A stretch of DNA of 64,000 nt from Gemmatimonadota bacterium (GCA_036556125.1 DATBJZ010000138.1:124-64123); one strand, 5' to 3'. Shown: positions 7,617 to 11,848, numbered from the stretch's first letter. Made by a program: numbers and translations. Notes: generated by a model not told the origin, from the sequence alone.

Positions 7617-10600
7617 ATGGCGCAGAGCCGGCTCAGCGGCCGCGAACGGCAGGTGATGGACGTTCTGTTCCGGCTCGGCTGCGCCTCCGCGGCGGACGTC
7701 CGGGCGGCCCTGCCGGACGCGCCGGGCTACTCGGCCGTGCGGGCCGTGCTCAGCGTCCTCGAACGCAAGGGCCTGCTCGTCCACCGTCCCGACGGCCAGC
7801 GGTACGTCTACGCTCCGCGGCCGGCGCGGTCCGACGCGCGCCGCCTCGAGCTCCGCCGGCTGCTGCACACGTTCTTCGACGATTCGGCGGAGGACGTCGT
7901 GGAGGCGCTCCTGGATCCCACCGTCGCGTCCCTGACTCCGGCCCGGCTCGAGCGCCTCGCGCGGCTCATCGAGGAGGCCGGCCACGCCGCCGCCGACGGA
8001 GAGGCCGCTCCCGCGCAGGAAGGCGGCGACGATCGCGGCCGCGCTCGCGCCGCGCGGGCGCCGAGGCCTTCGGCCGGCGCTTCGGCGACCCTGGTCGCCG
8101 CACTGGTCGGTGCTCTCGTGCAGGGCCTCGCGGCCGCCGAGCCCGCCCGCAGCCCGGCCGCCGTGCAGGTGCAGCCCTACGGCGGCGCCGTGGCGGGAAC
8201 GGCGCCCCTCGCAGGCCCCGCCGCAGGCGCCGCGAAGGTCCGGGCCGACACGGTCGCGGCGCCGCGCGGAGCCGCGGCGTCGGCCGTGGCGGACACGATC
8301 CGGCCCGCGAGCGGGGCGCCGCAGGACGCCGCCGGCACGTCGCGGGGGGACTCGCCCGCCCCCAAGCGCGTCCCCGCGGCGCGCATCCCGGCGCAGGCCC
8401 CGCACGTGGACGGGCGCCTCGACGACGCGGCGTGGGCGGCCGCCGCCTTCGAAGCGGGGTTCGTCCAGAAGGAGCCCGATCACGGCGCCGCGCCCGTCGA
8501 GCGTACGGAGGTCGCGTTCCTCTACGACGACCACGCGCTCTACGTCGCCGCGCGGATGGAGAGCCGCGACCCCGACGCGGTGGGCGACGTCGTGACCGCG
8601 CGCGACGACCACGGCAACGCGGAGCGGATCGTCGTCACGCTGGACACGTTCCACGACCGCCGGACCGCGTACGCCTTCGGCGTCACCGCGTCCGGCGTCC
8701 GGCTGGACTGGTTCCATCCCGACGACGACGAGACCCGCACCGACCTGACCTTCAACCCGGTGTGGGTCGCGCGGACGGCGCGCGATCCGCGCGGCTGGAC
8801 CGCGGAGATGCGCATTCCGTTCTCCCAGCTCCGCTTCCGGCGCGCGGATCCGCAGGTGTGGGGCGTCAACGTCCACCGGATCGTGCCGGCGCGGAACGAG
8901 AGCGACTACTGGGTCGCGGTCCCGCGCGACCAGAGCGGGTGGGCGTCCCGGTTCGGCGAGCTCGTGGGGATCGAGGGCGTGCCGGCGACGCGCCGCCTCG
9001 AGGTGACGCCCTACGTCTCGAGCGACACGCGCACCCGCAGCGACGCGCTCGTCGATCCCGAGAACCCGCTGGACGACGGGAGCCGCACGGGGTTCCGCAG
9101 CGGCGTGGACGTGAAGATGGGGCTCGGACCGAACCTGACGCTCGACGCGACGCTCAATCCCGACTTCGGGCAGGTCGAGGCCGACCCGGCGCAGGTGAAC
9201 CTCACGGCGTCGGAGATCTTCTTCGACGAGCGGCGGCCGTTCTTCACCGAGGGCAGCCGGCCGCTGGGCGCCCACCTCTACTCCGAGTTCACCACGAGCG
9301 ACCCGCCGCCGCTCTTCTACACGCGCCGCATCGGCGCCCCGCCGCACGGGACCGCGGACGCGGACTTCGTGCACGTCCCGCAGGTGAGCACGATCCTCGG
9401 GGCCGCGAAGCTCTCCGGTCGCCTCGACTCCGGCCTCTCGATCGGCGCGCTCGCCGCGCTCACCGACGCCGAGCACGCCGAAATCTTCGACGTCGCGCTC
9501 GGCCGCGAGGAGCTCGTCCGCGTCGAGCCGCGCACGGGGTTCGGGGTGCTGCGCGTCGAGCAGGAGCTCGGCCGCTCGGGCTCCACGGCGGCCCTGACGC
9601 TGACCGGCGTCCGGCGGGCGCTCGGCGAGGGCGACCCGCTGGCGGCGCTCCTCGTCGAGCAGGCGATCGCCGGCGGACTGGACTGGAACCTGCGCTTCGG
9701 GGGCGGCAACTACGACCTCAAGGGACATCTCCTCGGCAGCTGGCTGCGGGGCGACTCCCTCGCCATCGCGCGCGTGCAGCGCTCGAGCGTGCACTACTTC
9801 CAGCGGCCGGACACGCCCCAGGTCGACTTCGACCCGGGCCGCACGTCGCTCGCAGGCGGCAGCGCCATGCTGCGGTTCCGGAAGACGGGCGGCGGCCACT
9901 GGCGCGGGGAGGCGGGCGTGTGGGGGGACGGGCCCGCGTTCGAGATCAACGACCTCGGCCGCATCGGGAAGGCGGACGACATCGCGCTGTGGGGGAACCT
10001 CCGCTGGAGGGAGGACGACCCGGCCGGCACGCTGCGCAACTGGGAGGTCGGCCTGTTCGGCTCCAGCAACCTGAACTTCGGCGGGGTGCGGAAGTTCACG
10101 CGCGCCGCGCTGCGCGGCCGCACCACCTGGAGCAACTTCTGGGCGAGCCTGCTCGAGGTGGGCTACGTGCCGCCGTACACCAGCGACGACGCCACGCGCG
10201 GCGGTCCGTTGATGACGTGGGCGCCGGGCTGGGACCTCTACTACGAGCTCCTCGGCAACCAGCAGGCACGCACGCGCTGGAGCACGACCGGCTTCTTCTT
10301 CCGGAACGGCCTCGGCGGCTGGAGCCTCGAGCTGGACGGCGTGCTCGCGACGCAGGCGGGGGACCGGTGGAAGGTGTCCTTCGAGCCCCGGTTCCTGCTC
10401 GGGAACACGGCCCGCCAGTACCTCGCCACGCTCGACGGCGGCCGCGCCGAGACCTTCGGGAGCCGCTACGTCTTCGCGCACACGAAGCGGAGCGAGGTCG
10501 CGACGCCCGTCCGCGTGAACTACGCGATCTCGCCCGACCTCGGGCTCGAGCTCTACGCCGAGCCGTTCGCGTCGAGCGGCCGGTACCGCCGGTTCGGCGA

Positions 10601-10937
10601 GCTGGGCGAGGCCGGGGGGCGCGACCTGCGGACGTACGGCGAGGCGCCCGGCACGAGCCTGGCGCGGGGCGAGGACGGCTCGGTGCTCGTGACGGACGGC
10701 GACGCCGGATTCACCCTGCCCAACCCGGACTTCCACGTCGTGTCGTTCCGCAGCAACCTGCTGCTCCGATGGGAGTGGCACCCCGGGAGCACGGTCTACC
10801 TGGTCTGGCAGCAGAACCGCTCGGCGTTCGACCCCGAGGGCCGGCTGGTGAGCCCCGGCTCGCTCCTGGACTCCTTCACCGCCGACGGGGAGAACGTCTT
10901 CGCGCTGAAGGTCACCTACTGGCTGCCGATCGGGTGA
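7617..10937 (+). CDS. BlaI/MecI/CopY-family winged-helix repressor domain fused in frame, through a hydrophobic helix, to a CBM9-like/DUF5916 extracytoplasmic protein
   Basis: Residues 1-125 (MAQSRLSGRERQVMDVLFRLGCASAADV...LTPARLERLARLIEEAG) form a complete BlaI-type repressor. No stop codon follows. An Ala-rich linker leads to an RARAARAPRPSAGASATLVAALVGALVQGLAAAEP hydrophobic segment (signal peptide or TM-like). Then comes a CBM9/DOMON-like domain (HVDGRLDDAAW...YVAARMESRDPD) and DUF5916 motifs (TLNPDFGQVEADPAQVNLTASEIFFDERRPFFTEG). ATG at 7617. Confidence 0.75.
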   Translation: MAQSRLSGRERQVMDVLFRLGCASAADVRAALPDAPGYSAVRAVLSVLERKGLLVHRPDGQRYVYAPRPARSDARRLELRRLLHTFFDDSAEDVVEALLDPTVASLTPARLERLARLIEEAGHAAADGEAAPAQEGGDDRGRARAARAPRPSAGASATLVAALVGALVQGLAAAEPARSPAAVQVQPYGGAVAGTAPLAGPAAGAAKVRADTVAAPRGAAASAVADTIRPASGAPQDAAGTSRGDSPAPKRVPAARIPAQAPHVDGRLDDAAWAAAAFEAGFVQKEPDHGAAPVERTEVAFLYDDHALYVAARMESRDPDAVGDVVTARDDHGNAERIVVTLDTFHDRRTAYAFGVTASGVRLDWFHPDDDETRTDLTFNPVWVARTARDPRGWTAEMRIPFSQLRFRRADPQVWGVNVHRIVPARNESDYWVAVPRDQSGWASRFGELVGIEGVPATRRLEVTPYVSSDTRTRSDALVDPENPLDDGSRTGFRSGVDVKMGLGPNLTLDATLNPDFGQVEADPAQVNLTASEIFFDERRPFFTEGSRPLGAHLYSEFTTSDPPPLFYTRRIGAPPHGTADADFVHVPQVSTILGAAKLSGRLDSGLSIGALAALTDAEHAEIFDVALGREELVRVEPRTGFGVLRVEQELGRSGSTAALTLTGVRRALGEGDPLAALLVEQAIAGGLDWNLRFGGGNYDLKGHLLGSWLRGDSLAIARVQRSSVHYFQRPDTPQVDFDPGRTSLAGGSAMLRFRKTGGGHWRGEAGVWGDGPAFEINDLGRIGKADDIALWGNLRWREDDPAGTLRNWEVGLFGSSNLNFGGVRKFTRAALRGRTTWSNFWASLLEVGYVPPYTSDDATRGGPLMTWAPGWDLYYELLGNQQARTRWSTTGFFFRNGLGGWSLELDGVLATQAGDRWKVSFEPRFLLGNTARQYLATLDGGRAETFGSRYVFAHTKRSEVATPVRVNYAISPDLGLELYAEPFASSGRYRRFGELGEAGGRDLRTYGEAPGTSLARGEDGSVLVTDGDAGFTLPNPDFHVVSFRSNLLLRWEWHPGSTVYLVWQQNRSAFDPEGRLVSPGSLLDSFTADGENVFALKVTYWLPIG

Positions 10938-11848
10938 CCGGGGCGCGTCCGCGCGCCGCGGTCCTCCTGCTGGCCTGCCTCGCCGCCGCGGCGGCCGCCG
11001 GGGCGTGCCGGCGCCAGGATGCGGTCGCATCCGCCGGGCCGCGCGGCGAGCGCGACGCGGCTCCCGCGGCGGGCGCCGGCGGGGACGCGAGCACGGATCG
11101 GGGCGACGCCCGGGGCGTCGAGATCACGCACCTGGCCAACGAGGGGTTCCTCCTCTCGGCGGGCGGCACGAAGGTCCTGGTGGACGCGCTGTTCCGCGAC
11201 GGTCTGCCCGAGTACGCGCGGGTGGCGGGCGCCGGGCGCGAGGCGCTCGAGACGGCCCGCGGCGCGTTCGCCGGCGTGGACGCCGTGCTGATCACCCACG
11301 TCCACCGGGATCACTTCCACCCTCTCGCGGTCGCCCGGCACCTGGAGTCCGCCGGCGACGCGGTCGCGCTCGGCCCCCGTCAGGCGGCGGACAGCCTCGA
11401 GCGTCACGCGCCGCAGTGGCCCCGCATCGCCGACCGGTTCGTGGCCGTCACGCCGGGGCCCGGCGAGCGCGTCGAGCGCCGCGTGGACGGCGTCGAGGTG
11501 CTCGGCCTCGGGCTGCACCACCCTCCCTCCCGCAACCAGCCGGTCCAGCACTCGGGGTGGCTCGTGCGCATCGGCGGGCGTACGATTCTGCACCTGGGCG
11601 ACGCCGGGCTGGACGAGGCCGAGTTCGCTCCGCTCCGGCTGGAGGACGACCGGATCGACCTGGCGCTCGTTCCGTTCTGGCTGCTCGACGACGAGGGCCG
11701 GGCGTTCCTCGACCGCCACGTGAGGCCGGGCCGCGTCGTGGCGATGCACGTGCCGCCCGGCGACGTCTCCCCGACCCGCGAGCGCCTCGCGGCCCGGGGG
11801 CGCGGCGCCGTCGTGCTCGCTCCCGGCGAGAGCCTCCGGATCCGGTAG
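10934..11848 (+). CDS. MBL-fold metallo-hydrolase lipoprotein
   Basis: Its GTG start overlaps the TGA of the upstream gene (GTGA). Lipobox LLLACLAAAAAAGAC. HxHxDH motif LITHVHRDHFHP. Confidence 0.85.
   Translation: MTGARPRAAVLLLACLAAAAAAGACRRQDAVASAGPRGERDAAPAAGAGGDASTDRGDARGVEITHLANEGFLLSAGGTKVLVDALFRDGLPEYARVAGAGREALETARGAFAGVDAVLITHVHRDHFHPLAVARHLESAGDAVALGPRQAADSLERHAPQWPRIADRFVAVTPGPGERVERRVDGVEVLGLGLHHPPSRNQPVQHSGWLVRIGGRTILHLGDAGLDEAEFAPLRLEDDRIDLALVPFWLLDDEGRAFLDRHVRPGRVVAMHVPPGDVSPTRERLAARGRGAVVLAPGESLRIR

Follow-up and report, generated by a model that had tools for sequence, protein, structure and literature searches.

The BlaI-DUF5916 reading frame

The window analysed here is a 64,000-nucleotide (64-kb) stretch from a Gemmatimonadota bacterium (GCA_036556125.1, DATBJZ010000138.1:124-64123), in which plus-strand positions 7617 to 11,848 hold two genes in tandem: one encodes a BlaI-type repressor domain and a large CBM9-DUF5916 protein in the same frame, and the other a metallo-beta-lactamase (MBL)-fold hydrolase. 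An earlier note, made from the sequence alone, had described the first gene as a fusion with no intervening stop, and this was borne out, as 7617..10937 (stop included) is one uninterrupted open reading frame (ORF) of 1106 codons. Using Pfam, we matched Penicillinase_R (PF03965) to residues 7-120 (E = 4e-18; 66 bits against a cut-off of 22.6) and DUF5916 to residues 460-1103 (E = 2e-53). A CBM9_1 match at residues 264-449 lay below threshold; the fusion carries both a DUF5916 profile match and a CBM9-like domain on its N-terminal side. The NCBI record of the protein, HEY7530907.1, comes from a Gemmatimonadota metagenome-assembled genome and is titled only "DUF5916 domain-containing protein," a name that ignores the BlaI part.

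From its N-terminus, the 1106-amino-acid (aa) product consists of a BlaI/MecI/CopY-type winged helix-turn-helix (wHTH) repressor with its dimerisation helices (residues 1-125; 7617..7991), a first linker that is acidic and then arginine-rich (residues 126-154; 7992..8078), a hydrophobic segment (residues 155-174; 8079..8138), a second, Ala/Pro/Gly-rich linker (residues 175-249; 8139..8363), a CBM9/DOMON-like beta-sandwich (residues 250-455; 8364..8981) and the DUF5916 region, a predicted large outer-membrane beta-barrel (residues 460-1106; 8994..10934). On direct reading, no frame contains an ATG, GTG or TTG between 7990 and 8085, in agreement with the earlier note. In the fusion frame, the stretch from the BlaI domain to the hydrophobic segment has none, and the first such codon is a GTG at codon 168, within the segment itself.

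We compared four fused sequences: the window; L005, a near-identical, second full-length copy of 1106 aa (90%-identity cluster, JGI metagenome); and L001 and L004, 1092-aa copies from two other JGI samples that form a second cluster and are 83% identical. The architecture was the same in L005, L001 and L004, so that the fusion is conserved across two lineages and several metagenome assemblies. The locus was also present in two further samples, where the contigs end upstream of the junction between BlaI and the hydrophobic segment and the fusion itself is not visible. A canonical start before the hydrophobic segment was absent in all four fused sequences, and the DUF5916 part should therefore be translatable only by read-through from BlaI. 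Between the two lineages, synonymous divergence (dS) was 0.5-0.7 or more with the reading frame intact, and the ratio of nonsynonymous to synonymous divergence (dN/dS) was 0.14 for BlaI, 0.15-0.18 for the hydrophobic segment, 0.15 for CBM9 and 0.09-0.10 for DUF5916. Linker 1, the roughly 30 residues after BlaI, kept its frame with its sequence unconstrained (dN/dS 1.1-1.5). In a codon-free DNA alignment, the indels of the linker region were all multiples of 3 (3, 15, 3, 3, 3, 3, 3, an ambiguous 17+4, and 36 nucleotides [nt]), those in linker 1 being 3, 15 and 3 nt.

On these comparisons, the gene is a genuine gene fusion maintained by selection, and a function for both halves is strongly supported. 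We assign almost no probability to a lost stop, an assembly chimera or a decaying pseudogene with a functionless BlaI remnant. The source of the window, a metagenome-assembled genome, and the NCBI name would suit such an origin; however, an artefact was ruled out by the fused copies in two lineages (dS 0.5-0.7, several samples and assemblers), the in-frame indels and the purifying selection on both halves, and the BlaI part has a host-like third-position GC content (GC3 of 0.94) and a retained operator, described below. We also consider it highly improbable that DUF5916 and its signal peptide are translated from a non-canonical internal start, with the BlaI read-through being incidental. Linker 1 does evolve neutrally, and CTG codons occur at 159 and 163 in the window, but these CTGs are not conserved in L001 or L004, and a start at 159 would produce a signal peptide without a charged n-region. 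Moreover, none of the four sequences has an ATG, GTG or TTG before the hydrophobic (h-) region, and linker indels that are all in frame are expected only with ribosome read-through.

Outside these sequences, the two halves occur separately. Our comparison set for BlaI comprised 83 related loci from GTDB genomes and metagenomes (42-58% identity, among the matches listed), and in all 83 the protein stops 120-136 residues from the start of the match. Among the best 150 BlaI relatives found with phmmer in 1.84 billion representatives, the fused cluster was the only one longer than 312 aa. The fused locus was not found among the GTDB representative-genome matches listed, and a metagenome pattern scan gave only stand-alone BlaI relatives among the matches listed. 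Likewise, among the best 120 DUF5916 homologues, PF03965 was found only in the two fused clusters. Two other BlaI proteins extend past the usual stop: P0172 (247 aa), which reads into hydrophobic segments resembling the N-terminus of M56/BlaR1, and P0284 (312 aa). These may be BlaI-BlaR1 read-through fusions or frameshift errors.

Operator and retained BlaI function

The BlaI domain, which had been called complete, is intact. Besides being under purifying selection (dN/dS 0.14), it agrees with 43 stand-alone relatives at 45 of the 49 positions where these show at least 80% conservation, retains the recognition helix PGYSAVRA(V/L)L and shares the motif TFFDxS...ALLD...LxRLxxLI with those relatives. 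We also built an AlphaFold2 model of the fusion from an 85-sequence alignment (mean predicted local distance difference test [pLDDT] of 82, predicted template-modelling score of 0.75). It contains a BlaI-like helical/winged domain at residues 8-124, with dimerisation-region helices predicted at 71-87, 91-99 and 108-124; judged by motif and model, the C-terminal helical dimerisation region is present. A sequence search of the PDB with BlaI gave weak hits only (E 0.03-0.1).

To derive the operator of this BlaI clade, we took 79 regions lying upstream of related blaI genes and counted their perfect inverted repeats. TGCTA-N6-TAGCA was perfect in 44 of these regions and TGCT-N8-AGCA in 53; in matched coding controls, the best 5-mer palindrome reached at most 9 of 72. 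Allowing one mismatch to TGCTA-N6-TAGCA, 63 of the 79 loci carried a site. Stand-alone loci usually have two operator copies 19-20 bp apart, the first lying 11-14 nt downstream of a TTGACA-like -35 element and overlapping the -10 region.

The earlier note had suggested looking for a BlaI-type inverted-repeat operator in 7160-7616, and a putative one was found on the plus strand at 7545..7560, 57 nt before the ATG: TGCTGCTTTTCTAGCA, with one mismatch to TGCTA-N6-TAGCA. A -35-like hexamer, TTGTCG (7528..7533), lies 11 nt upstream of the operator and would serve as part of the promoter; this layout matches that of the stand-alone relatives and is the same in L004. Both elements fall in a 54-nt block (7507..7560) with 57% GC, against 73.5% for the genome, and about 90% identity to L004 in the aligned stretch. 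No other part of the upstream regions is well conserved between the two lineages, and the flanks of the block have diverged. Across both strands of the 64-kb window, there was exactly one match at up to one mismatch, with 0.03 expected by chance. L004 and L005 carry the identical site; upstream of the unfused orthologues L002 and L003, no operator appears even when two mismatches are allowed. Since the operator is unique to the fused loci and the recognition helix is kept, the fused BlaI domain almost certainly still binds 7545-7560 and controls its own operon, as far as sequence comparison can tell.

Two simpler approaches did not lead to this site. No classical TACA/TGTA bla/cop box is visible on reading the block 7507-7560, and a generic listing of inverted repeats returned only GC-rich chance palindromes, the operator emerging only from the comparison of 79 loci. 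As for the surrounding region, the earlier description of about 460 nt of non-coding sequence upstream is roughly right in size, though it is uncertain where the divergent minus-strand gene starts: its conserved coding sequence ends near 7095, and its ORF could run to 7476. In the interval between the fusion gene and the divergent gene, an 18-nt block at 7400-7417, CCGTACGAAGGTAAYCGC, is conserved between the two fused lineages amid diverged sequence. The TGCTA-N6-TAGCA operator had not been noted previously and is common to a large stand-alone blaI-M56 clade of soil metagenomes (upstream regions of L006-L091), represented among GTDB genomes by three hits, to Pyrinomonadaceae and other Acidobacteriota. 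It thus provides an operator consensus for a large uncharacterised BlaI-M56 clade of soil Gemmatimonadota and Acidobacteriota.

BlaI is normally partnered by the M56 sensor-protease BlaR1, and the earlier observation that this partner is missing was confirmed: tblastn with two M56 queries found no M56 homologue in the whole 64 kb and no M56 hit on the other fused contigs. A second BlaI was also absent from the 64 kb. The fused BlaI might nonetheless be under canonical control by an unlinked, BlaR1-like M56 protein encoded elsewhere in the genome, in which case the fusion would only set the place and amount of the repressor. An M56 gene is next in 56 of the 58 related blaI loci with enough downstream sequence, and likewise in the closest relatives (L006, 64%; L007/L008, 57%); many blaI-M56 pairs lie on Gemmatimonadota and Acidobacteriota metagenome contigs, and the dimerisation region targeted by such proteases is conserved. 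On the other side, besides the negative tblastn searches, the staphylococcal N-F cleavage site is not recognisable in the fused BlaI at what we take to be its position in BlaI/MecI. We regard control by an unlinked M56 protein as unlikely, and it is compatible with the export-coupled processing proposed below rather than exclusive of it.

The exported part and the internal signal peptide

The earlier note had also given the C-terminal part the role of a carbohydrate-binding sensor. This did not hold up: residues 250-1106 are 47-62% identical to, and collinear with, stand-alone members of 782-1094 aa, making this part a complete member of a widespread exported family, with a predicted outer-membrane barrel behind a CBM9/DOMON-like domain. 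In the AlphaFold2 model, a beta-sandwich occupies residues 250-455 and an all-beta region of long strands residues 460-1105, the latter mostly with pLDDT above 90. When the large beta region was searched with Foldseek, only outer-membrane barrels were returned: MtrB (E = 2.7e-8), Deinococcus SlpA, TonB-dependent transporters, AlgE and SprA. The modelled closed antiparallel barrel resembles these solved outer-membrane proteins, and DUF5916 is best read as a large outer-membrane beta-barrel with the CBM9/DOMON-like domain at its periplasm-proximal end. A sequence search of the PDB with DUF5916 returned nothing, and we found no paper in the literature that mentions DUF5916; the predicted barrel therefore offers a handle on a widespread, uncharacterised family.

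Two family members, P0028 (residues 34-105) and P0061 (residues 39-113), carry SPOR, a peptidoglycan-binding domain, after the signal peptide and ahead of CBM9. They are also the only two among the best 120 DUF5916 homologues in which we saw an N-terminal SPOR. Because SPOR sits at this position, the mature N-terminus of these members is, by their domain order, placed in the periplasm. The presence of SPOR also suggests a periplasm-side attachment of the CBM9-DUF5916 family to the cell wall.

The hydrophobic segment at residues 155-174, ASATLVAALVGALVQGLAAA, is the only one in the protein. Its Kyte-Doolittle means were 1.82 over 19 residues and 2.57 over 11 residues. Both lie within the spread seen for 118 unfused homologues (782-1094 aa), whose N-terminal signal peptides had medians of 1.62 and 2.48. 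Most of the 118 have an ordinary N-terminal signal peptide, and the fused segment aligns with the signal peptides of the unfused orthologues. It is preceded by an arginine-rich stretch and followed by an acidic one. At its end (8138/8139), the motif AxA/EP, with the slash marking the cleavage point, is kept as AAA/EP in one lineage and AVA/EP in the other, which is the -3/-1 pattern of type I signal peptidase; it is kept though synonymous sites in the segment are saturated (dS 1.1-1.4). The homologous, signal-peptide-like segment with its AxA thus lies 154 residues from the N-terminus of the fusion. From its alignment, its hydrophobicity and its conserved AxA/EP, the segment is best read as the ancestral Sec signal peptide, now internal. 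The earlier description of a signal-peptide- or transmembrane-like segment was right about its presence; it is better read as the DUF5916 protein's own signal peptide, with the peptidase site kept, than as a transmembrane helix.

With positive residues on the inside and a single signal peptide, the natural reading of the sequence is a membrane-tethered protein in N-in/C-out topology, and signal peptidase would probably separate BlaI from the barrel protein. Three points favour cleavage: the conservation of the AxA site, the ordinary cleavable precursors seen for almost all other family members examined, and the need for the barrel to reach the outer-membrane assembly machinery.

An alternative is an uncleaved one-component regulator that spans the envelope. 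The segment would then be a permanent anchor holding BlaI at the inner membrane, with linker 2 crossing the periplasm to CBM9 and the outer-membrane barrel, and ligand binding or barrel misassembly would trigger proteolysis that releases or destroys BlaI. The topology signals fit N-in/C-out, and in the second lineage the h-region is 19-21 residues long with a Kyte-Doolittle mean of up to 2.16, enough for a stable anchor. The 75-residue linker 2 (pLDDT 23-35, dN/dS about 0.3) is disordered in the model, as are residues 123-244 as a whole, linker 1 included (pLDDT below 50), and it would be long enough in principle for the periplasm. ToxR and CadC are examples of wHTH regulators that bind DNA without leaving the membrane (PMC6320335, PMC11484849). 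Set against this, the AxA/EP site is conserved, the other family members examined have, almost without exception, an ordinary signal peptide at the N-terminus, and the segment is not a confident helix in the AlphaFold2 model. Linker 2 is also present in the closest unfused orthologues, and it is therefore not an adaptation to the fusion. Finally, no protein known to us has both an inner-membrane helix and an outer-membrane beta-barrel. We consider the envelope-spanning arrangement rather unlikely, though it is the strongest of the alternatives discussed here.

Origin, proposed processing and known systems

No blaI lies upstream of the genes for the closest unfused DUF5916 proteins (58-62% identity). 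Among them, L003 shares two divergently transcribed upstream genes with the window (68% and 64% identity), and it is therefore a syntenic orthologue; it has no BlaI, operator or MBL gene. We rejected a fusion of pre-existing neighbours, as a separate upstream blaI was absent in L002, L003 and the P0005 contig, along with the operator and the MBL gene. Since the unfused orthologues lack blaI, the blaI module was brought in rather than merged from a neighbour. The comparison with orthologues had been named in advance as a test of the fusion, and it came out in favour of it: the unfused orthologues do not encode an upstream blaI, and the fusion is present in two lineages.

The 304-aa MBL-fold hydrolase gene (10934..11848, plus strand) begins with a GTG that overlaps the stop of the fusion (GTGA), and the same 304-aa product is predicted by JGI's gene call for L005, the near-identical contig. 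The coupling to an MBL gene that had been pointed out is thus present, and it is specific to the two fused lineages: the gene follows the fusion in L001, L004 and L005, overlapping or closely abutting it, and is absent beside the unfused orthologues L002, L003 and the P0005 contig. The product had been described as an MBL-fold lipoprotein. Its fold is supported by an HVHRDH (HxHxDH) motif and by Pfam matches above the cut-offs (Lactamase_B_2, 54.3 bits; B_3, 41.9; B, 27.2); the lipoprotein assignment fares worse, with a weak lipobox and an N-terminus that differs in L001/L004. The protein did not reach an NCBIfam equivalog, and its distant MBL homologues lie in unrelated contexts that give no functional clue.

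Further genes surround this pair. On the minus strand, a divergent gene at 5981-6724 and a second one from 6565 to about 7200 (start uncertain) have no Pfam match; the ORFs as listed overlap by about 160 nt, and their synteny is kept beside fused (L004) and unfused (L003) DUF5916 genes. Downstream are a gene for a DoxX-DUF4440/SnoaL fusion protein (11879-13003, plus strand) and one for an M28 peptidase with a PDZ domain (13080-16139, minus strand). DUF4440/SnoaL genes also follow the unfused DUF5916 orthologues in L003 and the P0005 contig, and the pairing is therefore older than the BlaI fusion. ARAGORN called an 88-nt tRNA-Arg(CCG) at 11603-11690, inside the MBL coding sequence; it has no Rfam support and is almost certainly a false positive in GC-rich DNA. 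A tRNA-Asn at 31693-31768 is supported by both ARAGORN and Rfam.

We propose the following course of events. In the ancestor of a narrow clade of Gemmatimonadota, a blaI gene that brought its promoter and operator along was joined in frame to the 5' end of a CBM9-DUF5916 gene. BlaI would bind the single TGCTG-N6-TAGCA operator beside the -35-like element and repress the fusion-MBL operon, and with it its own synthesis. The internal signal peptide would insert N-in/C-out through Sec, leaving BlaI in the cytoplasm and exporting everything after residue 175, that is, CBM9 and the barrel. Signal peptidase I would then cut between A174 and E175, freeing the mature protein for outer-membrane assembly and leaving a 174-residue BlaI-signal-peptide stub without a periplasmic tail. 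Held in the inner membrane by the signal peptide, BlaI could act on DNA there or, in a later step we infer, be freed by a site-2 or signal-peptide protease. One BlaI monomer would be made per exported protein and become available only after export, giving a negative feedback coupled to secretion. Our confidence in this account, an autorepressor made as the N-terminal extension of an outer-membrane protein precursor and processed by signal peptidase, is evenly balanced between acceptance and doubt. More tentatively, and with doubt prevailing, we suggest that export-coupled release of a repressor, or else a single polypeptide spanning both membranes, would be a mechanism not yet described for bacteria.

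Several points weigh against this proposal. Its processing steps are deduced from sequence features. The hydrophobic stretch of the second lineage has the length and hydrophobicity of an anchor, as given above, and the disordered linker 2 could let an uncleaved protein reach the outer membrane. There is a single operator, with a G at position 5 that occurs in 7 of 105 sites, and a sigma-70 consensus promoter was not called in 7100-8200. The in-frame linker indels are explained simply by the need to express DUF5916 and are no proof that tethering itself is selected. The fused clade consists of two lineages known from metagenomes only, its next relative (62% identity) being unfused; a fusion limited to one such shallow clade could be a tolerated accident. 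Finally, the search for M56 covered 64 kb of the genome, and an unlinked M56 protease may be encoded outside it.

If the proposal is true, the operon would receive feedback on how many molecules the cell has exported, and the gene would encode a bacterial "polyprotein" with a signal peptide as its processing site. Such a compact circuit would link the availability of a repressor to export and envelope biogenesis. To our knowledge, membrane-tethered transcription factors are few in bacteria, and none has the signal peptide of an outer-membrane protein as its tether; our literature search for tethered BlaI fusions found nothing relevant.

The CBM9-DUF5916 family occurs in Gemmatimonadota, Bacteroidota/Chlorobiota and others, and among the 120 members listed, an N-terminal addition of BlaI is confined to the fused cluster. 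Compared with the BlaI/MecI/CopY repressors and their BlaR1/MecR1 (M56) partners, the fusion has in common a palindromic operator over its own promoter, and it is most closely related, at up to 64% identity, to classical blaI-M56 pairs. A classical BlaI is, however, a free soluble protein of about 120-140 aa, whereas the fusion reads on into a signal peptide and about 930 further residues. It also has no adjacent M56 gene, has one operator where its relatives usually have two, and would control an outer-membrane protein and an MBL-fold hydrolase rather than a known resistance gene.

The earlier note had taken the protein for a one-component membrane-tethered regulator. A BlaI fusion tethered N-in, without BlaR1 and with an operator, agrees with that idea, and the release by proteolysis it had considered is plausible; the sensor domain does not fit, the partner of BlaI being a predicted outer-membrane protein precursor with its own signal peptide. 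ToxR, CadC and TcpP likewise have an N-terminal cytoplasmic wHTH, one membrane segment and an extracytoplasmic C-terminal part; tethering does not prevent them from binding DNA, and proteolysis activates CadC (PMC6320335, PMC11484849). The fusion differs in having a DNA-binding domain of the BlaI type, not the OmpR type, in a repressor architecture, and a C-terminal part that is a barrel protein of about 850 aa rather than a small periplasmic sensor. Its membrane segment, moreover, resembles a cleavable signal peptide. The fusion thus does not show the features of a ToxR-like protein, in which the wHTH is of the OmpR type, the transmembrane helix is stable and the sensor is periplasmic, and a ToxR-like one-component sensor is less likely than a precursor split by signal peptidase.

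In logic only, the arrangement recalls viral polyproteins that place a nucleic-acid-binding protein before an internal signal peptide. In flavivirus C-prM and hepatitis C virus core-E1, signal peptidase, cutting at this signal sequence, releases the exported partner, and another protease detaches the nucleic-acid-binding protein on the cytoplasmic side from its membrane anchor. These events take place at the eukaryotic endoplasmic reticulum, and there is no homology to the fusion.

A bacterial precedent for the proposed processing is the type II anti-sigma factor RsiV, for which type I signal peptidase acts as the site-1 protease at an A-X-A site at the membrane junction, followed by the site-2 protease (S2P) RasP (PMC9044953). 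S2P enzymes such as RseP and RasP clear remnant signal peptides as well (PMC8144685, PMC9044953), and stubs of this kind are removed by signal-peptide peptidases or S2Ps (PMC8144685, PMC10470546, PMC9044953). A BlaI-signal-peptide stub would therefore be a natural S2P substrate. Like RsiV, the fusion combines a regulatory domain on the cytoplasmic, N-terminal side with one membrane segment, and it has an A-x-A at the membrane/extracytoplasmic junction. RsiV, however, is an anti-sigma factor, and lysozyme binding gates its cleavage, whereas the cytoplasmic part of the fusion is a DNA-binding repressor, its exported part is predicted to be a bona fide outer-membrane protein, and its cleavage would probably be constitutive. 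If processing works as proposed, the fusion would be a second context, after RsiV, in which signal peptidase takes part in a regulatory cascade.

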